In this document: piece after piece, positions 34,818 through 56,642 of the stretch | Layout of the letters: each line of letters starts with the position of its first letter | Position numbering within the stretch: position 1 is the stretch's first letter | Virus record (IMG/VR): IMGVR_UViG_3300024239_000354 | Source of the DNA: an uncultured virus (IMG/VR IMGVR_UViG_3300024239_000354) | Lineage: Duplodnaviria > Heunggongvirae > Uroviricota > Caudoviricetes | Direction: 5' to 3' (one strand) | Length of the DNA stretch: 64,000 nt | Position numbers and translations under genes: made by a program | The notes under the pieces: generated by a model | The model's database searches: none | Told to the model about the DNA's origin: nothing | The model's input: only the letters and a program-made list of their open reading frames with translations

Positions 34818-35158
34818 GGAAGTTTTTCCCCGCCGCCATTGATATAGTCGCGCAATTCACGCAAAAATTTCTCGGTCGATGGGAGCAAGTGGCAATAAAT
34901 CTCGGTCGGGTTGATGTGCTGGTCGAACATCATTTTGACGACCGGGGTGACCCACGATGCCAATTCCTCGGTGCGCACTTGATCCCTGAACTCAAAAAGT
35001 GCCTCTTGGAACTCTTTCCGCTTACTTTCGTCCATATGGTCGAGACTGATCGCCAGCAATCGCAGAAGGATTTCTGTCTTGAGCCGGGATTCATTCGCAA
35101 CGCGGTCGCGGACTCCCTTGACATCCTCAACCACGCGGTCGCTGATCACCATGACCAT
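34796..35158 (-). CDS. hypothetical protein
   Basis: 120-aa ORF in a minus-strand operon. Confidence 0.65.
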   Translation of the reverse strand: MVMVISDRVVEDVKGVRDRVANESRLKTEILLRLLAISLDHMDESKRKEFQEALFEFRDQVRTEELASWVTPVVKMMFDQHINPTEIYCHLLPSTEKFLRELRDYINGGGEKLPWLPVVR

Positions 35159-35161
35159 GGA

Positions 35162-35509
35162 TCACCCGATCATTTTGCGGGCGGTAATTAGCACGCCCTC
35201 TTCGTTTTCGGTGATGATGTAATCATCAGGCGATTGGCGCACCATGGCGCTGCCATTGAGGGTTGGTTCCCCTTTGTTACCGAACATCGTTGATGGGCTA
35301 TGGAATAACCCTACCTCGGTATTGAAGGTGGTTGTTCCCCCATCACGAGCGCGTTGTACGCGGCTGGTGATCTGCACTTCGGTCATTGGTACATTTTCTG
35401 AACCAATGAACATGCGGAAACTCTCGTAAGTGAAATGTTCGGCGTCGGCACTCACGTAGACGAGGGTTCCATCGGGGTGTCGGAACAGATATTCAGGGCA
35501 TCTGTTCAT
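35162..35509 (-). CDS. hypothetical protein
   Basis: MNRCPEYL..., ATGA-coupled. Confidence 0.65.
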   Translation of the reverse strand: MNRCPEYLFRHPDGTLVYVSADAEHFTYESFRMFIGSENVPMTEVQITSRVQRARDGGTTTFNTEVGLFHSPSTMFGNKGEPTLNGSAMVRQSPDDYIITENEEGVLITARKMIG

Positions 35510-35931
35510 GGCTTTTGCACCATCGGGGGCTGCTTTCGAAGATCGGACACGTCCTTGGTCACGTCTTTTACGGCAGCGGCCAGCGCCAAGATTTTGTTCG
35601 CCAATTCCTCGTCCACGCTGGGGGTAAACTGACGGCACATTTCGTTCTCGGTGCTGTTGTTCCAGCCCTTAACGGCGCAACGCGCGGCGACGGGATTTGT
35701 GCCGCCCTTGATCAAGTTCTCGATTGCAGTATTGGCAGCCATGTCCCGTTCGGCTTCCTTGATACGCAAGGCATGCTTGCGTTCATCTTCTTTTTCACCA
35801 TAGGGCATGTTTTTGATCTGGCACCCGGAAATCGAGAGGATCAACACCGAAACGACAATGGCGAGAGCATTGACCACGTATTTCGTGATCTTCACCTCGC
35901 TCGATTCCGTCACCTGTTCTTTGGCAGCCAT
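35506..35931 (-). CDS. membrane-anchored hypothetical protein
   Basis: Hydrophobic segment ending ISGC; AGGA SD. Confidence 0.65.
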   Translation of the reverse strand: MAAKEQVTESSEVKITKYVVNALAIVVSVLILSISGCQIKNMPYGEKEDERKHALRIKEAERDMAANTAIENLIKGGTNPVAARCAVKGWNNSTENEMCRQFTPSVDEELANKILALAAAVKDVTKDVSDLRKQPPMVQKP

Positions 35932-36015
35932 TTTCCTACCTACATGATTCGATACTACCTGACAAATGGTATATCCCATTGCCAAGTAATGAGCAAGCAA
36001 ATGTGGAGGGCGGGG

Positions 36016-36035
36016 CGTGAATACAGATCGTGGTT
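36016..36035. repeat. 20-bp perfect inverted repeat, partner at 42314-42333
   Basis: CGTGAATACAGATCGTGGTT versus AACCACGATCTGTATTCACG. Confidence 0.95.
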
Positions 36036-36576
36036 TTGGGGCGTATCACGGGTCTTGGGGCGCATCCTTCATAACCCTTGTGCTGGAGTCCCGGAGGTCT
36101 TTACCATTCCAGCGGCGATACGCTTTCGCATTTGCAAGGCTAGATCACCACACAGCCGTAACCAGCGGCTTACCCTGTTCCCCGTTGTCGAACTGGGCTT
36201 TACCCGCACCCGCCGCCTATAGCTCGTCAGCGCATCGGCAAGATGTGTTCCCTGAGGTCATGGGAGGTATTTTGCGACGGTCGATAACCACGAGGGCAGC
36301 CCGTCGAAAATGAGCGGGGGACCGTTGATCGCGCAACCACCAAGGCGTGGTGATCTAGTATTGTAAATGGGGCGGGCTGGGACTAGCTCTCATTATCCCT
36401 GCCCATTAGCATCAGTGTTATCGCACCGAGAGCAAGCGCCAGGGTACAAGTGGAGTTGCCCTGGTGCTGCATAGCAGCCAATTAATCCACTATCAGCCAG
36501 CTTGCCTGACAGCACCGTGTCCAGTCCTCTAGAGGTGGGTCGATCAACCCGACCAAACACAGGATCGACTTGCAGA

Positions 36577-36653
36577 TGATGTGGGACAGGATTTGAACCT
36601 GCGATCTCCCGATGCCGGGCGCGCTGTCCGATACTCTACGCCACGCCACATCA
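36577..36653 (-). ncRNA. tRNA-like RNA with a shrunken anticodon loop and no CCA
   Basis: TGATGTGG/CCACATCA acceptor, GCAGG-TTCAAAT-CCTGT T arm, CCCG-GCAT-CGGG arm. Confidence 0.6.
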
Positions 36654-37186
36654 CCATTCTGGAAAGGATTGGGTGACCCGTGAGAGGGGCTGGTCAAGTC
36701 ACCCGATGTCTTCATCAAGACCCTTAGCTTTACCCTAGCCGTCGTTCCATCGTGCCGACGTTCAAACCACGTTCCGGTACAGCCTCTCCCGAGCCGTCCG
36801 CGTGTCGCATAGACTGTCTATGGTGTTTCAACCACTGATTAGCTTTGGTAGATGTGATCGGGTCGCACTCGGACGTTTCCCCAGCCCACGGAGGCTGCAT
36901 CTGTCTACTCTTCCCGAAGGAAGCCATCGGATCACAGTTGCTACTTCTGCCAGTCACATGCCCTTCCCCTAGCTCCTTGCGGTCACCAGGGTACCCTTTA
37001 CCGACAACCGCTTTCGTAGCGTTCGTCGTTGACTTCGAAGCCGAAATCCTTGGCAGTGGTGGCGCCTACCCGCTCACCTACAGCTTCGCACGTCCTTCCG
37101 TGCCGCCACATACAGCCACCTTCCCCGAAGGGAAGTATCCTCTGCCTAATAAGGCGTCAGTGACCGGGCATCAGTCGCGCAGCAAT

Positions 37187-37265
37187 TGGTTCGGGGGTTG
37201 GGATTTGAACCCAAAGGCTCTGCAACCTGAATGCAGCGCGTCTACCGCTTCCGCCACTACCCCGA
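37187..37265 (-). tRNA. atypical tRNA with CAG anticodon (Leu-type), no long variable arm, bulged acceptor
   Basis: CTGCA-TTCAGGT-TGCAG arm, TTGGG-TTCAAAT-CCCAA, ends in ACCA. Confidence 0.6.
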
Positions 37266-37304
37266 AGGTTTTGAGTTCAACCATTTTGGGAACTCGGAAT
37301 TTTA

Positions 37305-37381
37305 ACCCAAGACCGGACTTCCACCGGTACCTCCGGGCTTCCCGCCCGGCGCTCTCCATTCCCTGAAATGGTTGCCGACTC
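37305..37381 (-). ncRNA. tRNA-like RNA
   Basis: CCGGG-CGGGAAG-CCCGG arm followed by an ACCGG-TGGAAGT-CCGGT T-like arm. Confidence 0.4.
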
Positions 37382-37844
37382 TTACAGGGATGTGCGTTCG
37401 GCTTTGAGCTACATGGGATTCGAAATGGCATTTATCAGGATGGGCAGGGTTCGATACCTGCTTGCAGGGGGAACTTTTTTAACATGCCAATATTGGTTAG
37501 GGTCTGACCTGACCGGTCCCTACTTGGTCCCCATAATCCGCGCTTCAAACCTATGGTCTAGCTCTGGCACTGGAATTACTGCTCTGTGCAATTCAGCGCG
37601 TGTCCTTCCACGCTACCATCCAGATAAATGTCATTATTGGGAAGTTTTACCTCATTTCCGCAAGGGATACGCAATCGTCGGTCAGTGCAGCCATGCGTAT
37701 CTACGAGTCCCTGACCGCTCAGATACTCGCACTTTCATTTGGTCTATCATCGGCTGTTGCAATTGGGGCTACCCATTACTGGGTGTGAGCCAAAGTCATA
37801 TCCGACAACGTTAAGGCAATCGACCTTGAACTTCCCGAAAGGCG

Positions 37845-37902
37845 TGCCTGACCATCGCTTGCGCTAGGTTTCGACTGGTGCCAACAGTCATCATCAGAGG
37901 CA
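37845..37902 (-). ncRNA. hammerhead ribozyme
   Basis: UGCCU-CUGAUGA-U-GACUG(UUGGCAC)CAGUC-GAAA-CC...GG-UC-AGGCA; predicted cleavage after GUC at 37850. Confidence 0.8.
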
Positions 37903-37909
37903 ATTAAAA

Positions 37910-37996
37910 GGGACGGGCGGGATTCGAACCCGCGAAGGCTTTCGCCAGGAGTACCGCGCGCAGTCTCCCCGCTTAGATCACTTGCATACGCATCCC
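37910..37996 (-). ncRNA. class II tRNA-like RNA with a remodelled anticodon arm and no CCA
   Basis: GGGATG/CGTCCC acceptor, GGC-GAAA-GCC variable arm, GCGGG-TTCGAAT-CCCGC. Confidence 0.6.
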
Positions 37997-38237
37997 ATGG
38001 ATGGCGGTGGAGAACATAGGCGCCTATGTTCTCCACCTTCATGTTTAGCCACCTATCCTTCGTCCCAAGTCGAAGGGTACCCGTGGGCTATCGGGGTACT
38101 TTGTTCCACCGTCGCACTTGGGGCTGGCGACGGAATTATGCAAGGCAGGTTATCATCCATTTTGCTACGCGCTATGTAAAACTCCCCACGTGATGACGGT
38201 GGATTGTTTTTGCACGTATGTGATGCTTATTCCTTCA

Positions 38238-38308
38238 TGCCTTGGTGAGACTCGAACTCACAACCTCCCATCCGCGACGGGTGTTCTATCCAGTTGAACT
38301 ACAAGACA
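38238..38308 (-). ncRNA. tRNA-Arg-like body with a 5-nt anticodon loop and no CCA
   Basis: GTAGTTCAACTGGATAGAAC D arm; CCCGT-CGCGG-ATGGG; GTGAG-TTCGAGT-CTCAC. Confidence 0.6.
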
Positions 38309-38329
38309 TTACGGAACCTTACAAATTGG

Positions 38330-38634
38330 TGGCGGAAGGGATGGGATTCGAACCCATGGTGGGTTTGCACCCACGGCGGTTTTCCTTACACACTTCGGCT
38401 TTCGCCGCCCCAGTATGGGTTTGTGGTCTGGACTTTCTCTTCACCATGGCGGCTTTTGCCGCTTTAGATGCCTGCCGTCAAGTCTCTACACCTTCCTGAT
38501 CACTCAGGCTTGGCTCGGGATTGCCATGTCTTGCAACGAAGGTTTCCCCGAATTTGACAGGTTCTACTCCAAGGGTTTCCCCAAGGGCACTCGATAATCA
38601 AGACCGCTACCTTAAACCACTCGGTCACCCTTCC
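38330..38634 (-). tRNA. tRNA-Ser(UGA) interrupted by a group I intron
   Basis: Exons 38600-38634 and 38330-38384 join to give GCGGT-CTTGAAA-ACCGC, long variable arm, G73, CCA. Confidence 0.9.
38385..38599 (-). mobile_element. compact group I intron (215 nt, no ORF)
   Basis: TCAAATTCGGGGAAACC, GGCAATCCCGAGCCAAGC, AAGGTGTAGAGACT and AAAGTCCA core elements; U.G pair in P1; terminal G. Confidence 0.9.
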
Positions 38635-39668
38635 GTACTTCAGAATTCTTCACATCGTCAGAAGCCGGGATTTGGCTCACCACCCGGAACCCGTCGCTAT
38701 CGCGCCGCTCTTTTGCCATTAGGTTGAGGTACAACCGACGATGTTTTGGGATTATCGTATCCCTTCCGCGTCGAGCCTTGTCACGGACGCCATGCTATCC
38801 TCGTTGCCGTATTGGATTTCGCACTGTCATCCACGACAAACGACATTGAGCTTAGGTCTGAGTGCTACCTGCTGCTCGGTTATGGGAAGGCGGCGGGCTT
38901 TGCACCCCGCATTTTGGCTATTCAAGAACCGTGTCTTTCTTGCGACTGTCTAGTGCCCCAGCGCAGCCGTTAGACGACCCTTCCCGTGATCCTGTCATGT
39001 TCGCGACCATGACAAGGATGGCTATGTACCAAGTGCCAGAGGTTGCGCCGCGCCCGGTTCCACCGTGGTGGGAGGGTGGCACTTGGTACAACTGGATGAA
39101 CCCGACCCCAACATCAACGCGATGGGAGATCACATAAAGGCAGCTAGAAGCCGGGTTCAATTTTGTGGGAGCAGCCAAAACGGCGCTCAACCGAAAAGAC
39201 ATTCAGAGGATCAGGGTGGGTGCGAAACCACTTACCGGTGTTAGATGCCGGTGTACGAAAGCTTACGTACCTCCAATCCTCTACAGCCCCCTCTACTTGA
39301 ATGACTGGTCCTGGCGGTTCCGATGCGCTTCGGTACCGTTACTCCCAATCATTTTCCACGTTTCCAATCTCGGTCCATCAGGTTGTTCAAGGGTTCCCGA
39401 AGGTGCGCTCCCTTGTTCTTCCCTTCACTCAGAGGAGTCTAACGTGGCAGGCGTAGTTATCGGCTGTATTTCGAGTGTTGCCTACCTACACTCAGGGTGA
39501 AATCAAAATCATGGTACAGGGGTGCGTTTCCCCGGCGCAGCTTGGCACAATGACCACTAGCCCCCGTGGTGCCGCGTCGGACTATGATGATGGTGGGAGC
39601 AGCCATTGAAGGCGCTCAACCGATGATGGTTTTTGAACTGTGATAAGTAGCAAAATCCACCCGTTAAT

Positions 39669-39744
39669 TGGTGCTCCCACCCAGACTCGAACTGGGGACA
39701 TAGGCATTTAGAGTACCCTCTTCTACCAACTGAAGTATGGGAGC
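39669..39744 (-). tRNA. amber suppressor tRNA (anticodon CUA)
   Basis: GCTCCCATACTTCAGTTGGTAGAAGAGGGTACTCTAAATGCCTATGTCCCCAGTTCGAGTCTGGGTGGGAGCACCA; 76-nt cloverleaf, loop CTCTAAA. Confidence 0.9.
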
Positions 39745-40030
39745 TTGGTTCCCGCAGCATATCCGAAAACATGGGGTCATGCCGGTTTCCCTGACCCTTT
39801 CGCCCATCCTGTGTCAACCGCCGCCGAAGCAGCGATCACCCATTCTCCACCCCTTGCGAGGCTTCACTGTTTGGACAGCGATGAACTCCAACCACGCCTT
39901 CCTGCTTTCACAGCGAGCCAGCAATGGTGTCAATTTTGATTGGATACCTCTGTCACGGCTTTTTGACATCCGTCCACCGTGCCCTTCTCTTGAAGGGTTG
40001 TCCGCACCATACGATGTGTGGTGGATAAAT

Positions 40031-40133
40031 TGGTGACTGTGGGTCGTACTGCGCATCAATGGGTTGTCGCCATCCATTCAACCGACGTTGAATGCCCACC
40101 AGCAAGGCTACCAGCACCTTTTCTCCCACAGTC
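40031..40133 (-). ncRNA. CCA-ended structured RNA, non-tRNA core
   Basis: GACTGTGGG/CCCACAGTC stem followed by ACCA. Confidence 0.5.
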
Positions 40134-40172
40134 TTCGCCCCTTCCGGCTTTACCGCTTTCTTGAGGGCAATT

Positions 40173-40256
40173 TGGTGGAGGTTGTGGGTTGCATAACTTC
40201 CCACCCCGTCGTTGGCATACGCCCTACGCCGTCCGCTTCATGCTACGAAAACCCCC
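40173..40256 (-). ncRNA. Ala-acceptor mini RNA resembling an isolated tmRNA tRNA-like domain
   Basis: GGGGGTT/AACCTCC-A-CCA with G3.U70; GTGGG/CCCAC T-like stem; no anticodon arm. Confidence 0.5.
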
Positions 40257-40966
40257 AAAATGAGTAGCACCAGTTTTCGTCTGTTTTGCGCTGGGGTTTT
40301 TGGTCGATACCCCACTCTTGTTTTGTGTTCTATAACCTTATGTGGGGCGACGGGGTTTTACCGTGCCTTGTGGCGTTCCACGGCTCTTACCGTTTAACCG
40401 TCCATTCCAGCAATCGTGCGCACTCATGCTGTTCAAGTCGGTCAACGTCCTACTCGTTTCACAGGGAGCGACCCTGTTAATCCTTTCGGTCTAAGCTACG
40501 CCCCGCATAAGGTTACAGAGATAACGGTAGGCTGCTCAGCTATTGGCATACTACCGTTAATTATCGACGGTCACTGTTTCGCTCGCATCATGTGCGATGG
40601 ACTTTCACCATTTTGCCGTCGATGGGTCGTAATATGATGGTTCTGACTGCCTCTCTTTTTGGGCGGTGGGCATGCATCACCTTGGCAGTCCGTTTTCTTG
40701 CTACGTTTTCGAACCATAGAAGCCTTCCACTTCCGCGCGGCATCGTCATTACGGCGACCCGTTGTGCCGTACTCGCGCATCGTCATAGCCGCCCGCCTAA
40801 GCCGTTGGCTCGGATTTGCTTTCTGGATTGGATTGTGTTCATCGTTCTAACCGATGCCAACTGGACCTTCCGATTTAAACCAGCCAGCGAGCAGTGTGTC
40901 GCCACTTAGTTCCAGTGCCCGTGCATGATCCGGGTGGGTTTCACAGCCCCCTCAACACAAACTTAT

Positions 40967-41149
40967 TGGTTTCCAGCATCAGAGTTGAACTGATCCTTAC
41001 CCTCGATCACTACCCCATCCCTGAACAAACTGTGCGTCAGTTTTACGCGCAGAAACGGATCATGATGTCATCGGGGCGTGCTTTCCTCGGTGGATATACG
41101 CACGATCCACCTCATTGGAAATTACTACCTGTCTACACTACTGCTGGAT
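40967..41149 (-). ncRNA. enlarged tRNA-like RNA with a pseudoknot
   Basis: TCCAGC/GCTGGA acceptor, ATCAG-TTCAACT-CTGAT T arm, ACCA end; loop CGTGC can pair with downstream GCACG. Confidence 0.5.
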
Positions 41150-41428
41150 TACGGCGGGGATGATCCCCAAAACTTTCTAGACAACCCGGTGGTATGACCA
41201 CTATTTGTCCTTATCGGGGGCAGTGAGGAACACTCACCGCAGAAAACACTAACCTCTAAGTGGTTATTTGGACAGTCCAGGCTTGATTTTTGTGCCTTAC
41301 GAGTCGAACGTAAGTGCCCTAACACAAAACACCCTTCCGGTTTGCAACCCAGTTGGGATTGAGGCGCCTCTACCTGCCACGACTGCTAAGCCATGACGCC
41401 TGAACTGACCAAATAACCGAAGAAAGTA

Positions 41429-41533
41429 TGCAGGGGTGGACTTTCACCACACCACGCGCACTGCGCGTTGCTCTCCCCGTGGATAAGACGGGTCTGGCTC
41501 TTGGTATCCCGCGCCATATTAAGCTACCCTGCA
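41429..41533 (-). ncRNA. tRNA-like RNA with expanded D and variable arms
   Basis: TGCAGGG/CCCTGCA acceptor; CCCGT-CTTATCC-ACGGG; GTGG-TGAAAGT-CCAC. Confidence 0.5.
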
Positions 41534-42414
41534 ATTCCGTTTGCCCGGTGGATGGGGATTTGGACCCCACTTTCTCCCTTTCGGGTGCGTTACCTATTCG
41601 CCTCTCACTAGCAGATGTTGTTAGTGGCACGGTATTAAGCCGTATCCGCCGCTATCTGTGTACATCAGCCATCTGCATCAAGGTTCCCTGGTCCAGCCTA
41701 ACTGGTTGACAAGGGTCTGTCGGACAAATTGATTGGTGATCATCACCAAATTAAGATCGGCAACCCAAAGGCGTGGTGTTGAACCAGCAGATTGTCGGGG
41801 GTTTCCCGGCAATCCCTCCATTGCATTAGGTCTTTCGGATGACACATCCGAAGCAGCACCTTCGCTGCTCTGGTCGCAGATGCGACCATTTCAAAACTCG
41901 TTATGTTCAAGGATCGGCAACCTACGTAGAGGATTCGAACCTCTGCTACCCACCGTTTGGGTGAGTGTGCCACCGCAGCACTTACGAAGGTCTTTCGGAT
42001 GGTACCCTCCGAAGCAGCGCCATTTACTGCTCGGATCATGCTCGTGTATCCGTCGATACAAAAACCCGATCCTTGAAGATAACGAGTTGCTTGTTATTTG
42101 CGGGCAGGCGACTACTCTTCTCTGAGCTACCAGACCAAAAGGACCGGGCATAGGTTCCGTCCAAAGACGTGTCTATACGACCTTTCGCCTGCCTGCAAAT
42201 AACAAGCGTGTTGGTTGGGTGCCGCCACAGTTTGTATGCCAATGGTATGGCTTCTATGGCTCGAACGGAATGTCCGTCCGGTTGGTGCCGTTGTTGGTAC
42301 CAACTGGCACCCCAACCACGATCTGTATTCACGATGTCAATCAGACCGTTGATCTGACCGGGGCTGGTTTCCCAACCCGAAGAGCGTAGCGGTTCTCACC
42401 GCTGTGGAGCTTAG

Positions 42415-42443
42415 AATATAACACGCTGCGATTGCGGTGTCAA
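42415..42443 (-). promoter_or_regulatory. sigma70 promoter P2 of the ncRNA operon
   Basis: TTGACA-17 nt-TATATT. Confidence 0.85.
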
Positions 42444-42499
42444 CCCCTTGCTCCGTTGCCACTGTATCGTTTTGCGACATCAGCGGCGTCGATGAGTGG

Positions 42500-42528
42500 A
42501 CTATACAAGCCAGAAGTGGGTCTGTCAA
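42500..42528 (-). promoter_or_regulatory. sigma70 promoter P1 of the ncRNA operon
   Basis: TTGACA-17 nt-TATAGT. Confidence 0.85.
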
Positions 42529-42565
42529 CAGGGGTACGAAAATTTTTTATCCGCTAAATAACCCT

Positions 42566-42979
42566 ATGCGCTACAGCGAAATCCTAGATGAAGATTTGCG
42601 TACCCGAGAATTTGATTGGCCTGCCTGGGCACGCAATCGTCGGCGTAACTACGTTTTGGTTGATATTGATCCGGTAGCCTATGTCGAAGCCTTTGACAAA
42701 TACCAACCGGACATGGCAGTTCGATTTGATTATTATCACGACCATGAGAACGACTATCACCACCGTAAGGTGGATCGGTTGGTTCAATGGTTAGAAACAA
42801 ATCCCACGGTTCCCGTGGAAACCCCTGATGTAGGGCTGGATGACCGGGGGAACCCATATACGACTGACGGACGCCATCGACTGTATTGGTTTGCGAAGAA
42901 TGGAATACGGCGGATGAAGGTGATGGTGCCGCGCAATCAAGCTAAGAAGATTGCGCAGCTATTCCCACCACAAGAATGA
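42566..42979 (+). CDS. ParB/Srx-like late protein
   Basis: CTAAATA 5 nt before MRYSEILDED; TDGRHRL motif. Confidence 0.7.
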   Translation: MRYSEILDEDLRTREFDWPAWARNRRRNYVLVDIDPVAYVEAFDKYQPDMAVRFDYYHDHENDYHHRKVDRLVQWLETNPTVPVETPDVGLDDRGNPYTTDGRHRLYWFAKNGIRRMKVMVPRNQAKKIAQLFPPQE

Positions 42980-42980
42980 T

Positions 42981-43199
42981 CTATTCGATCATGTAGAGCC
43001 GCTTAATACCATCCATGCACTCACCGGGGCGGCTAGATGAAATGCATTTCGTTGCCATGTCGATGAATTGCTCCTTAGACACCGTAATTTTTTGCGGGGG
43101 TTCGTGTGTGGCAACGTAGATCACAAACCCGATCAGGGATGTTGCCACGCCTGCCAGTGCCGCCATCCGTATTGGACCTAACCGACGAAATATTTCCAT
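42981..43199 (-). CDS. small membrane protein
   Basis: MEIFRRLG... with one TM segment; GAGG SD. Confidence 0.6.
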   Translation of the reverse strand: MEIFRRLGPIRMAALAGVATSLIGFVIYVATHEPPQKITVSKEQFIDMATKCISSSRPGECMDGIKRLYMIE

Positions 43200-43200
43200 T

Positions 43201-44139
43201 CTATCGATCCTCGAACAGATTGGACACTGACATTTCGTGATTGATTCGATTGATCGCTTCCGCCAGTAACGGGGCGACCGTGATCTGTCGAATTTTCGCG
43301 CAACCATTCACTACATCAGTTGCTTTAATCGAGTCAGTAATTACCATTTCTGACAGAACTGAAGAACCAATGCGCTCAACCGCAGTACCAGACAGCACAC
43401 CATGGGTGATGTAGGCGGAAACTGAACGGGCACCCTTTTCAAGCAGTGCAGAGGCAGCATTGCACAGGGTACCAGCGGTGTCTACGATGTCGTCAATGAT
43501 CACGCAGTCTGCACCTTCGACGGTTCCGATCACGTTCATGACTTCACTGATGTTGGCTTTCTCGCGGCGTTTGTCGATGATCGCCAATTCCGCGTTATTG
43601 ATACGTTTCGCCAAATCGCGGGCACGCACCACACCACCCACATCTGGTGATACCACTACGGTATCACCCCGGAATTTTTCACGGATGTCACGGGCGAACA
43701 GTGGTGCTGCAAACAGGTTATCCACCGGAATGTTGAAAAAACCTTGAATTTGCATAGCGTGCAAGTCGAGAGTCAAAACACGGTGTGCGCCAGCGGTGGT
43801 GATAAGATCGGCAACCAATTTTGCGGAAATTGGGGTGCGGGGACCGGGTTTGCGATCCTGCCGGGCATACCCGTAATAGGGAATCACCGCCGTAATGCGT
43901 TTGGCGGATGACCGCTTCAATGCATCTATGGTGATTAATAGTTCCATAAGGTGTTCATTGCACGGGTGTGACGTGGATTGAACCACGAACACTTCGTTGC
44001 CACGGACATTCTCATTAATCTCAACGCGGATTTCCCCATCGGAGAACCGTTTGATCTCTGAATCTACGATGGGTATATCGAGATAATTGCCGATTGCCTT
44101 TGCTAGAGGCAGGTTACTGTTACATGAAAGAACCTTCAT
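43201..44139 (-). CDS. prs: ribose-phosphate pyrophosphokinase
   Basis: [34 protein letters not shown] and [10 protein letters not shown]. Confidence 0.98.
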
Positions 44140-54836: not shown

Positions 54837-56642
54837 ATGTCGGACGTGAAAAAGTTTGGTCAATCGGGCGTCGGGTCGGACGTTCAGTTTGGCAAAAAAG
54901 GTCCGCGCCTTATTGCGGACACCGGGACAATCAAAGTTACGGGTTCGGATGGAACCACTTTGACCACGGTGCAGGGTGCTGATGGTGTGTCGCCTAATGA
55001 TTTTGTCACTGTACAACAAATATCCAGTGGAAGTGTGGTTGACGGTGCTGCGATTCCACTAGGTAACCCTACTGATGGTTCTTTGACTGATGGTGCGATT
55101 ACACTTTCGAATACCATCAAGGTAACTGATGCAATTGATCGAATGAATGAAGTTCTTGGACTTTTAATTCCTGCCGCCCCGCCAACGTGGCCAAATGGTT
55201 CGGCGTTTACTGTGACCGGGGCACAAAGTTTTGAAGTAGCATCTGGTACCCTGACTGACAATACGGGTGCGGGTGTTCCAACTTCAGGTAATACCGTCAG
55301 TGTTGTTTATAATGCATCAGTATCCACAAGTGTCGTCGGTGGTTCGGGTGCTGCTGGGGCGGGTCCGGGTACCAGCGGTACAATGGCTGCGTTGTTGAAC
55401 GGAACTGCGATTGGTTCCCGCACTCTGACTGTTGGTAGTGATAATGGTACCTACGGTAAACTGGTTCTCAGCGGTAATGTTGATTATCCGTCTGACAAAC
55501 CCGGTTTCTGGGAAGTAATTCAGGCGCAAATTTCCGGTGCGACTGCCCTTTCTGGCTATAATAAAGTCCAAATTACGCACACTGACGCTCAGAATACTGC
55601 TGAAGTGTTCTTCTTATACGATAATGTGTTGTCTGGTAATGCGTCGGTAGCCTCGCCGTCTGTTACCGTTGGTACCGGTTCCACTGCGATGTCCTCGGGT
55701 ATTCCACACTATGTGAATGGTGCAACCGTCAATGTTTCTGGTACAGCAAACAACCTTGCTGGTCTGTCCTATCGCAAGACCGCGTTGCTGTCGGTTGATG
55801 GTATTGCGGAAGGTACTGACTACGTGGCGATAGCGTCACAGACCGACTACAATGCCGGTCAGGTCAGCATTCCAAACCCATTGCCTCAGGGTGCTACCGG
55901 TGTTGCATTCTCCAACGCAGCCCTAACCCTTGCTGATACCCACTCGTTGGGTCACGCACGTGTTCGCGCTCGTAATCCGAATGGCGGTAGCTTTGTGGAT
56001 ATTTCTTCCCCGAAGATTCTCGTTATGGGTACCGCTTCGACTTCTCGGATAGACGAAGACAACATTCTCGTGAACGGAGAACTGGGGTCATCCCCGGTCA
56101 GTGCCAATGCTGCTCGCATTGTGATGATTGATGGTGATACTCCGAATGCGACTTTCACTGGCACTACCACCGACTGGAATGCTTCTGCTATTGATGCCCA
56201 TGATGCTGTTGTGGTCGGCGGTGTCCTGAAGCATGACACGACAAATTACAGCACTGGTTATCTACCGAGTGGACCTGACTATTCGTCTAAGAATGCCAAC
56301 CAGTACATCACGTTCATGTTCCGGCGTACTCCGGTGTCGAAATTTGATATCAGCATCACTGGTACTATTGCTGGTTGCTGGGTCAAACTTCCGGGCGTGA
56401 CCAACGCGACGTACACCGCGAATAATGAATGGCGTAATCTGAACTTGGCTTATGGCAACGGTTATGGTTGCGCTCTCGGCGCAGTTATCCCGGTGGGTAC
56501 TGCGATTTCCAGTGGTCGCTACACCTGTACGTTCGGACTTGATAGCTCGGCAAACTCCACTAACAACATCGTGTTGGTACGGTTGAAGCTGACTACTGGT
56601 CAGAAAGTTACCGCTTTGTCGTTCCGTGGCGCGTCTAACTAA
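54837..56642 (+). CDS. putative virion structural protein
   Basis: 601 aa, G/S/T-rich beta-type sequence; ATAAATA at 54772; AGGAG SD. Confidence 0.7.
   Translation: MSDVKKFGQSGVGSDVQFGKKGPRLIADTGTIKVTGSDGTTLTTVQGADGVSPNDFVTVQQISSGSVVDGAAIPLGNPTDGSLTDGAITLSNTIKVTDAIDRMNEVLGLLIPAAPPTWPNGSAFTVTGAQSFEVASGTLTDNTGAGVPTSGNTVSVVYNASVSTSVVGGSGAAGAGPGTSGTMAALLNGTAIGSRTLTVGSDNGTYGKLVLSGNVDYPSDKPGFWEVIQAQISGATALSGYNKVQITHTDAQNTAEVFFLYDNVLSGNASVASPSVTVGTGSTAMSSGIPHYVNGATVNVSGTANNLAGLSYRKTALLSVDGIAEGTDYVAIASQTDYNAGQVSIPNPLPQGATGVAFSNAALTLADTHSLGHARVRARNPNGGSFVDISSPKILVMGTASTSRIDEDNILVNGELGSSPVSANAARIVMIDGDTPNATFTGTTTDWNASAIDAHDAVVVGGVLKHDTTNYSTGYLPSGPDYSSKNANQYITFMFRRTPVSKFDISITGTIAGCWVKLPGVTNATYTANNEWRNLNLAYGNGYGCALGAVIPVGTAISSGRYTCTFGLDSSANSTNNIVLVRLKLTTGQKVTALSFRGASN

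Follow-up and report, generated by a model that had tools for sequence, protein, structure and literature searches.

Inverted-repeat stalks in a tRNA-bearing stretch without open reading frames in a huge phage: candidate closing helices of one long transcript

The locus described here is a stretch of ~6.3-6.4 kb, at 36.0-42.4 kb of a 64-kb window (the whole 64,000-nucleotide piece of DNA that was analysed) from an uncultured virus (IMG/VR record IMGVR_UViG_3300024239_000354; Caudoviricetes). No credible or long open reading frame (ORF) was found in 36.0-42.4 kb under genetic code 11, with TAG read as glutamine (TAG=Q) or under code 4. The stretch carries an array of transfer RNA (tRNA) genes and tRNA look-alikes together with a series of long inverted repeats, here called stalks, each of which encloses a short unit or module (M1 to M10). 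The RNA genes amounted to three clear tRNAs, one intron-split class II tRNA, two full-length look-alikes and one isolated T arm, and each of these, look-alikes included, lies on the minus strand. The features are listed in Table 1.

Table 1. Features of the array and its borders, in descending order of position (own model, our tRNA covariance model described in the text)
Feature	Position	Strand	Description
Terminator-like hairpin	42802-42820	minus	3' of the upstream phosphoribosyl pyrophosphate (PRPP) synthetase gene; pattern match only
Two tandem sigma-70-like promoters	42528-42500 and 42443-42415	minus, facing the array	11/12 consensus each, 17-nt spacer
Master helix 5' arm	42314-42333	minus	Perfect 20-nt complement of 36016-36035
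M10 (new in this analysis)	42213-42317	minus	11-bp closing stem, three hairpins inside; first array unit
M9 stalk	42089-42111/42185-42207	minus	22/23 matched, 73 nt enclosed
M8 stalk	41895-41917/42066-42088	minus	22/23 matched, 23-bp; encloses three hairpins and a tRNA look-alike
tRNA look-alike inside M8	41920-41990	minus	Odd anticodon loop; own model 34.3 bits, E 6e-8
Unit B	41740-41900	minus	Tandem paralog of the M8 cargo, no long stalk; alignment, 76% mean column identity
M7 stalk	41262-41287/41393-41418	minus	22/26 matched (19/21 over the span first annotated), 105 nt enclosed
M6 stalk	40329-40349/40499-40519	minus	19/21 matched, 149 nt enclosed
tRNA, anticodon CUA (amber-reading)	39669-39744	minus	ARAGORN; Rfam 60.7 bits
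M4 stalk	39025-39038/39077-39090	minus	14/14, perfect, 38 nt enclosed
Class II tRNA gene split by a 215-nt group I intron (38385-38599)	38330-38634	minus	Rfam RF00028 56.7 bits; ARAGORN intron mode
tRNA called Arg(gcg)	38236-38309	minus	Short anticodon loop; 55.7 bits; ARAGORN, Rfam and own model
Perfect hairpin	38001-38042		19-nt arms, 4-nt loop
Class II tRNA-like element	37910-37996	minus	T arm alone scoring, 19.1 bits
M2 stalk (new in this analysis)	37424-37443/37616-37635	minus	18/20 matched, 172 nt enclosed
tRNA-Leu(CAG)	37187-37265	minus	40.4 bits, ARAGORN and Rfam
tRNA look-alike	36579-36650	minus	Stunted anticodon arm; Rfam 26.7 bits (cut-off 29); own model 30.4 bits
M1 stalk	36129-36151/36347-36369	minus	20/23 matched, 195 nt enclosed; last array unit
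Master helix 3' arm	36016-36035	minus	Pairs with 42314-42333

The initial annotation of this DNA had described six near-perfect inverted repeats, each around a module of its own. A repeat search over 35000-43500 and an arm-by-arm check recovered all six at the same positions and with the same match counts. To put a number on their excess over chance, inverted repeats were seeded from exact 8-nt matches and extended without gaps, with mismatches limited to 15% and loops to 260 nt. The scan gave 52 pairs with arms of at least 14 nt in the whole window, and all seven of the pairs with arms of at least 18 nt fell within 36.1-42.2 kb. In 200 dinucleotide-preserving shuffles of the 6.4 kb, the mean for this longer class was 0.04 (maximum 1), against the seven observed, and for arms of at least 14 nt it was 1.32 (maximum 5), against 12 observed. 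With loops restricted to 30-260 nt, six pairs with arms of at least 18 nt were present in the stretch, none in the remaining 57.6 kb and none in 60 shuffles; the other intergenic DNA of the window likewise held no such pair. The enclosed units span 66-241 nt, and the stalk duplexes have free energies (dG) of -20 to -50 kcal/mol. Seven stalks have arms of 20-26 nt that are 85-100% complementary, that is, near-continuous helices of ~20 bp or more, as RNase III stalks have; lengths of 20-26 bp fit the minimum size of an RNase III substrate.

A further pair clamps the array as a whole. The arms of this master pair stand 6278 nt apart, at both borders of the ORF-free stretch, and when the window was compared with itself, this was the sole distant perfect inverted repeat of at least 20 nt (E 0.003). 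As minus-strand RNA it would form a duplex of ~27 bp with one 2-nt bulge and a dG of -50 kcal/mol, whereas the local hairpin that competes with it has a dG of only -17.7 kcal/mol. Its 3' arm is retained in a co-occurring strain, with a 1-nt deletion at 36018. Within the master pair, M8 and M9 are contiguous (0 nt between them), M10 begins 5 nt beyond M9, and no pairs cross. Thus, the stalks are arranged serially and nested within one another.

The initial annotation had also held that the stalk sequences all differ from each other. Neither a self-comparison of the stretch nor one of the 64 kb found a second copy of any module or arm, but the stalks are not all unrelated: the arms of M7 and M9 proved weakly alike (17 identities in 21 aligned columns, score 19). 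One in 300 shuffles gave a likeness as good, 28 pairs were tested, and the two cargos are unrelated. The likeness hints that a stalk may have been reused as a scaffold. The short motif GTTAT/ATAAC is present in four of seven stalks. The edges of the M4 indel described below carry an imperfect 7-nt direct repeat, and no direct repeats were visible within 10 nt on either side of the remaining six stalks. We also considered integron attC sites and rejected them, as the short GTT and AAC cores stand in the wrong order (by eye, against the consensus).

We then asked what the modules hold by folding them as minus-strand RNA. Whole modules gave z values of -8.15 (M9), -7.43 (M8), -6.37 (M7) and -5.70 (M6), with none of 200 shuffles as stable in each case, whereas M4 (-2.06, 8/200 as stable) and M1 (-1.40, 20/200) stood out less. 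The fold around M10 (42208-42410) had a z of -6.56, again with 0/200 shuffles as stable. When the interiors alone were folded against 100 shuffles each, M8 reached -3.05 and M2 -1.56, and the stability of the modules is almost wholly due to their stalks. A full-length tRNA match was found in only one of seven modules, M8 (34.3 bits), and no module contained a match to the Rfam tRNA model (RF00005) at its gathering score. Across Rfam 15 (4227 models), tRNAs and one group I intron alone scored above threshold in the stretch, and nothing else was credible at E ≤10.

The cargo of M8, that is, the look-alike and the three hairpins preceding it, has a tandem paralog in Unit B. In the alignment of the two, eight of 31 consensus pairs are kept via changes on both sides, a count that comes from two sequences only. 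These double changes read as RNA-level conservation on the minus strand, the sole such case inside a module. Hairpins with GNRA or UNCG tetraloops numbered 13 on the minus strand (shuffle mean 7.1; 7/300 shuffles reach 13) and eight on the plus strand (shuffle mean 5.6); since flanking coding DNA gives 3-11 of them, this excess is weak.

The tRNA genes were called with ARAGORN, with Rfam and with our own covariance model, which was built from 36 phage tRNAs and run with its filters off. In the split gene the intron is inserted after U34, and the exon junction yields the anticodon UGA. Intron-less homologues from other organisms in the DNA runs described below skip exactly the 215 nt. The anticodon, together with a discriminator G and an encoded CCA, makes the split tRNA read as a tRNA-Ser. 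The usual tRNA host of such group I introns is tRNA-Leu(UAA). ARAGORN labelled the look-alike in M8 'Phe(aaa)', and Rfam gave it only a tRNA-Sec match of 20.6 bits, below threshold; the element at 37910-37996 matched in Rfam the 3' end of the transfer-messenger RNA (tmRNA) model alone (17.7 bits). Non-standard anticodon arms, with 5-nt or otherwise short loops, a C at position 33 or a stunted stem, were seen in the elements at 38236-38309, 41920-41990, 36579-36650 and 37910-37996. Judged by these arms, the elements may be non-decoding mimics or nuclease-evading variants.

The tRNA with the anticodon CUA is well formed, and the stretch gains no long ORF when TAG is taken as a sense codon. Hidden coding under another code, which this tRNA had prompted us to consider, was dismissed, as neither TAG=Q nor code 4 opened a convincing ORF in 35.9-42.5 kb. 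Two plus-strand code-11 ORFs (36845-37366 and 37368-37814) were also discarded: they gave no Pfam hit, a tblastn search of 50,697 phage records matched neither, and one of them overlaps a tRNA gene. A unit of ~430 nt appears to be duplicated (39159-39471 and 39592-39625), with ~30 nt from near 39165 recurring, by eye, at 39592; at the position that the CUA tRNA takes in the second unit, the first has a weak likeness to a tRNA (39207-39279), which at 8.5 bits is not significant.

Both promoter matches, which are calls by consensus match only, come after the terminator-like hairpin behind the PRPP synthetase gene, and no convincing promoter was found inside any module. Downstream of the array, the next gene on the same strand (minus) starts near 35931, and its frame was confirmed by strain differences at 35668-35707 that are spaced by three bases. 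From the inward promoters, the placement of all RNA genes on the minus strand, the lack of an ORF and the same-strand gene that follows, the stretch looks like one early minus-strand transcription unit reading on into protein genes.

The window belongs to a huge phage. Its 601-aa protein (54837-56642) matches phrog_8578 (E 5e-125) and is ~40% identical to tail proteins of Caulobacter and Brevundimonas jumbo phages. Neighbouring genes for translation and proteostasis encode a seryl-tRNA synthetase, a second class II synthetase, translation initiation factor 3 (IF3), a peptidyl-tRNA hydrolase (PTH2), ClpX, ClpS and Hsp20, a load that is unusual for a phage; metabolic neighbours encode PRPP synthetase, dephospho-CoA kinase and shikimate dehydrogenase. 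A 1554-aa protein of the window joins subtilase, matrixin and immunoglobulin (Ig)-like domains. Scanning 68 ORFs of the window against Pfam revealed no transposase or recombinase, no RNA ligase (RtcB or Rnl) and no TROVE/Ro60 protein; the nearest RNA-ligase-related match was to Tpt1/KptA (E 0.0074, below the Pfam cut-off). A retron, in which a reverse transcriptase gene adjoins an msr/msd with a1/a2 inverted repeats, was rejected as well: 36.0-42.4 kb holds no ORF of at least 120 aa with a family match, and the only reverse-transcriptase-related match in the window was an RNase H gene (1731-2192).

Strain variation was followed in the DNA runs of one study, four of which contain the stretch; two of them (X3 and X4) were compared, as contigs only. 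One form lacked 36045-36367, which is M1 and 85 nt (joint 36044 to 36368, 323 nt skipped; X3 and X4), and carried 15 other letters instead. In X3 the depth of this form was 61, compared with 22 for the reference-like contig. Left of the joint it was ~7% divergent (77 letters of 1045, 35000-36044), whereas only 0-2 letters per contig differed across the array and rightward, which reads as a sharp recombination boundary at the last module (35000-36044 versus 36368-43500). A second form lacked 39031-39105, which is M4 (joint 39030 to 39106, 75 nt skipped; X3 and X4), and in a third 39159-39471 was repeated in tandem (joint 39471 to 39159). Since M1 and M4 are absent from co-occurring strains, these two modules behave as dispensable cassettes, and the fact that individual units can go missing between strains suggests that units may be swapped. 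The two runs differed at most once across 40173-43500, so that the four best stalks are not informative on compensatory change. Among the single-nucleotide polymorphisms listed, most lay at unpaired positions of the predicted folds, none lay within a stalk arm, and no double compensatory change was present.

Four small RNA libraries of a second study contain about one-tenth of the words of the stretch, and two of these (X5 and X6) were compared, again as contigs only. Such contigs show neither strand, nor ends, nor whether the molecules were RNA, and because the runs were picked for containing the stretch, their cover is proof of neither transcription nor processing. Pieces of the array matched library contigs at 97-100% identity, and M6 was matched at ~90%; parts of the array were covered in X5 and X6, with no cover of M1, M8 and M9. 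Two contig ends, at 37639 and 40495, lay no more than 4 nt from the edge of a stalk, where ~0.8 would be expected by chance among ~20 ends. Four pieces between modules (37639-37837, 38693-39002, 40639-40819 and 41500-41803, minus strand) appeared as library contigs of ~160-310 nt at 97-100% identity. They belong to no Rfam family, and the fold of 38660-39024 had a z of -2.41; these pieces may be further stable RNAs of the array. All seven joints listed for the two DNA and two RNA-library runs were skips or one go-back, the latter being the tandem-duplication variant of the DNA runs, and none changed strand, although contigs drop rare forms.

Relatives were sought in sequence collections. Scans of viral contigs gave nothing above 28% protein identity, the best match in genome contigs was 69%, to PRPP synthetase, the best in metagenome contigs was 68%, and blastn against phages and plasmids matched only the intron and a tRNA. 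Long inverted repeats with loops of 30-260 nt are nevertheless mildly enriched in the tRNA clusters of two distant relatives. The 16-kb tRNA cluster of the Caulobacter phage CcrBL9 contained two (shuffle mean 0.13), and the tRNA regions of Salicola phage SCTP-2 contained two in 18 kb and three in 20 kb (shuffle mean ~0.5 each). In CcrBL9 a true tRNA-Thr lies within a 22-nt inverted repeat, which is better conserved than the sequence beside it when three Bertelyvirus sequence types are compared. In SCTP-2 a 23-nt inverted repeat surrounds 107 nt with no tRNA match inside (record 315097-315249), and it is a possible counterpart of the modules described here.

Our leading interpretation, which we hold tentatively, takes the stalks to be closing helices in RNA: they would insulate the modules of one long minus-strand transcript from each other and would probably be cleaved by RNase III in the manner of ribosomal RNA (rRNA) operons. 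Host polymerase would start at the two strong promoters near 42.5 kb and cross ~6.3 kb of tRNAs, look-alikes, the intron-bearing tRNA and other RNA before entering the downstream genes. Each stalk would join the sequence just 5' of a unit to that just 3' of it, so that the unit could fold alone with its ends brought together, and the master helix would clamp the whole array likewise. Host RNase III would then cleave the helices, freeing the units and separating the array from the downstream mRNA, a step modelled on rRNA operons and on the early transcript of phage T7, and RNase P would cut at the tRNA-like elements. Since the helices have 20-26 bp of nearly uninterrupted Watson-Crick pairing, RNase III of the host, which is specific for double strands, would most likely cut them. 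That one stalk, M8, encloses a significant tRNA homologue supports this interpretation, as do the double changes between its cargo and Unit B, the confinement of long inverted repeats to this stretch, their nesting inside the master pair, the shared strand of the RNA genes, the inward promoters, the lack of a long ORF and the enclosed tRNA-Thr of CcrBL9. The sequences show the helices with their excess and nesting, the tRNAs, the promoters as consensus matches and the gain or loss of units between strains; that the array is transcribed as one unit, that RNase III cleaves it and whatever function its cargo may have are what we infer. In a bolder version, the master helix and ~ten nested or serial RNase III-type helices would divide one early transcript into a set of new stable RNAs and tRNA mimics. 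As exchangeable cassettes, these would let the phage take control of translation or shield it, for instance by acting as decoys against host defences that target tRNAs. In that full form, this version appears unlikely to us.

Several results weigh against processed closing helices. The 13 non-Watson-Crick positions in the seven stalks comprise five G-U pairs on the plus strand, two on the minus strand and six that would be neither, and duplex energy favours the plus strand in four of the seven stalks, the minus strand in two and neither in one; by these counts and energies, the stalks lack a signature of selection on one RNA strand and are merely very good complements. The interiors of M1 (z +1.58), M4 (+1.41), M6 (-1.01), M7 (-0.01) and M9 (-0.87) fold no better than shuffles, and 150-nt windows of the stretch have a mean z of -0.83, compared with -0.75 in flanking coding DNA. 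Six of the seven modules have no tRNA likeness (best 6.8 bits, E 1.2, own model with filters off), and these six matched no Rfam family at E up to 10. No close relatives in which covariation of the stalks could be followed were found in viral, genome or metagenome contigs, and the two changes in the Bertelyvirus tRNA-Thr repeat are not compensatory. Finally, near-perfect pairing and unit-wise presence or absence are also compatible with a process at the DNA level. Of the proposal in the initial annotation that each stalk is an RNase III-like signal or a closing helix releasing a distinct small RNA, the first part fares better: near-perfect helices do close units within a promoter-driven, ORF-free tRNA stretch, and their processing is plausible. 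The release of a distinct small RNA by every stalk is doubtful, as five of the seven interiors fold no better than shuffles and the one recognisable RNA is the tRNA look-alike.

The same geometry would be expected if the helices form in RNA and stay uncut, either as clamps against misfolding in a 6-kb transcript or as closing helices of optional domains in a few very large RNAs. M1 and M4 are optional between strains without disturbing their neighbours, as expansion domains are, and the spacing of M10, M9 and M8 by 5 and 0 nt would permit stacking. However, structured RNAs that are already known tend to be closed by shorter helices in which G-U pairs are tolerated, whereas the stalks here have 20-26 bp of almost pure Watson-Crick pairing; moreover, most interiors have no detectable structure, and at E up to 10 Rfam gave neither GOLLD nor ROOL nor another of its large RNAs. 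We regard this alternative as possible but improbable. A similar standing, on the unlikely side, is given to an origin at the DNA level, by which the modules would be small insertions with terminal inverted repeats or template-switch quasi-palindromes, tolerated only in this non-coding stretch, with RNA pairing incidental. The near-perfect Watson-Crick arms without RNA-strand bias, the mostly unstructured interiors and the variable presence of M1 and M4 among co-occurring strains would all fit, and the imperfect 7-nt repeat at the M4 edges can be read as a target duplication or a slippage deletion site. There is also a precedent in Neisseria, where Correia elements, which are DNA repeats, can become RNase III targets when transcribed (PMC2649163). 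On the other hand, miniature transposable elements occur in multiple copies with shared ends, and within the 64 kb no module or arm is repeated, the weak likeness of the M7 and M9 arms being all that approaches shared termini. Direct repeats are visible beside no stalk other than M4, the 68 ORFs scanned include no transposase or recombinase, the arms of the master pair coincide exactly with the limits of the transcription unit, and the window's other intergenic DNA is free of such repeats.

Two further explanations are far less probable. The arms of 14-26 nt and segments of 66-241 nt are within the size range of invertons, that is, invertible DNA switches flipped by a recombinase. We consider such switches very improbable here: 0/7 of the joints listed in the four runs change strand (with the caveat given above for contigs), the Pfam scans of the 68 ORFs gave no recombinase, no module has a convincing promoter, and since every pair differs in sequence, a single recombinase could not serve all of them. 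Circularisation, which the initial annotation had raised, would require that the stalks juxtapose the ends of each module for its excision and ligation into a circular RNA. Geometry alone speaks for it, and we hold it to be barely credible. The contigs of the two RNA libraries contained no back-splice joint, neither RtcB nor Rnl was found among the 68 ORFs, with the Tpt1/KptA match below the cut-off, and the ends produced by RNase III are staggered, lie on opposite strands and do not form a ligatable nick. That an explanation beyond those listed applies we think quite unlikely, and closing helices that are probably cut by RNase III remain our tentative choice.

Should the helices prove to be processing sites, the locus would offer a ready map of unit boundaries, which would aid the discovery of new phage RNAs and tests of how host RNase III and RNase P mature multi-RNA precursors. 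The suggested swapping of units also bears on how phages assemble repertoires of tRNAs and decoys against host defences.

Among known systems, rRNA operons come close in architecture. In these operons the flanks of a unit pair into ~20 bp or more, and the 16S and 23S stalks span kilobases; here, too, flanks pair over ~20 bp or more, stalks are nested or serial in one operon, and a master helix spans kilobases. The units here differ in being 66-241 nt long and not rRNA, and their cleavage would be by analogy. RNase III sites of the T7 early transcript are simple hairpins with internal loops, whereas the stalks here clamp cargo.

Phage T4 makes non-tRNA stable RNAs beside its tRNAs: RNAC and RNAD, encoded in the T4 tRNA cluster, whose role is described as still unknown (PMC9697503). 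The array is alike in placing non-tRNA RNA beside phage tRNAs, but T4 has two small RNAs and the array has ~ten units in 6.3 kb; no relation of the array to RNAC or RNAD was found by sequence or in Rfam. In the bacterial Y RNA-like YrlA, a long stem formed from both RNA ends bears a multi-hairpin domain, and a Ro60 (TROVE) gene is expected within ~4 kb on the same strand (PMC4201824). M9 can be drawn with a stalk, a hairpin, a closed acceptor-like stem and a D-arm-like hairpin in the same order, but its T arm is not tRNA-like. Neither half of the stretch had a Y RNA or YrlA match in Rfam at E ≤10, the Pfam scan of the 68 ORFs had given no Ro60, and the short YrlA motif was set aside as uninformative, with nine occurrences on the minus strand of the stretch. 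The Correia elements of Neisseria are inverted-repeat-bounded units of ~100-150 bp that vary between strains and whose transcripts form hairpins bound or cut by RNase III (PMC2649163). Units bounded by inverted repeats and variably present between strains are thus common to both, but Correia elements are multi-copy with one shared repeat, whereas the units here are single-copy, have their own arms and lie in one operon.

A search of open-access papers and preprints yielded no account of a phage tRNA operon that contains such a nested array inside a master stalk. Also close are the tRNA-Thr genes of the Caulobacter phages CcrBL9, CcrSC and RB23, distantly related jumbo phages in whose tRNA cluster a 20-22-nt inverted repeat likewise pairs the leader with the trailer of a unit about as long as a tRNA. 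What that helix encloses is a genuine tRNA, whose acceptor stem it prolongs, and CcrBL9 has two such repeats in 16 kb, compared with six in 6.4 kb here. Phage tRNA clusters have long been known to include extra stable RNAs, and the window is an extreme and unusually legible case, with ~ten units in 6.3 kb, explicit boundary helices, a master helix and strong promoters.

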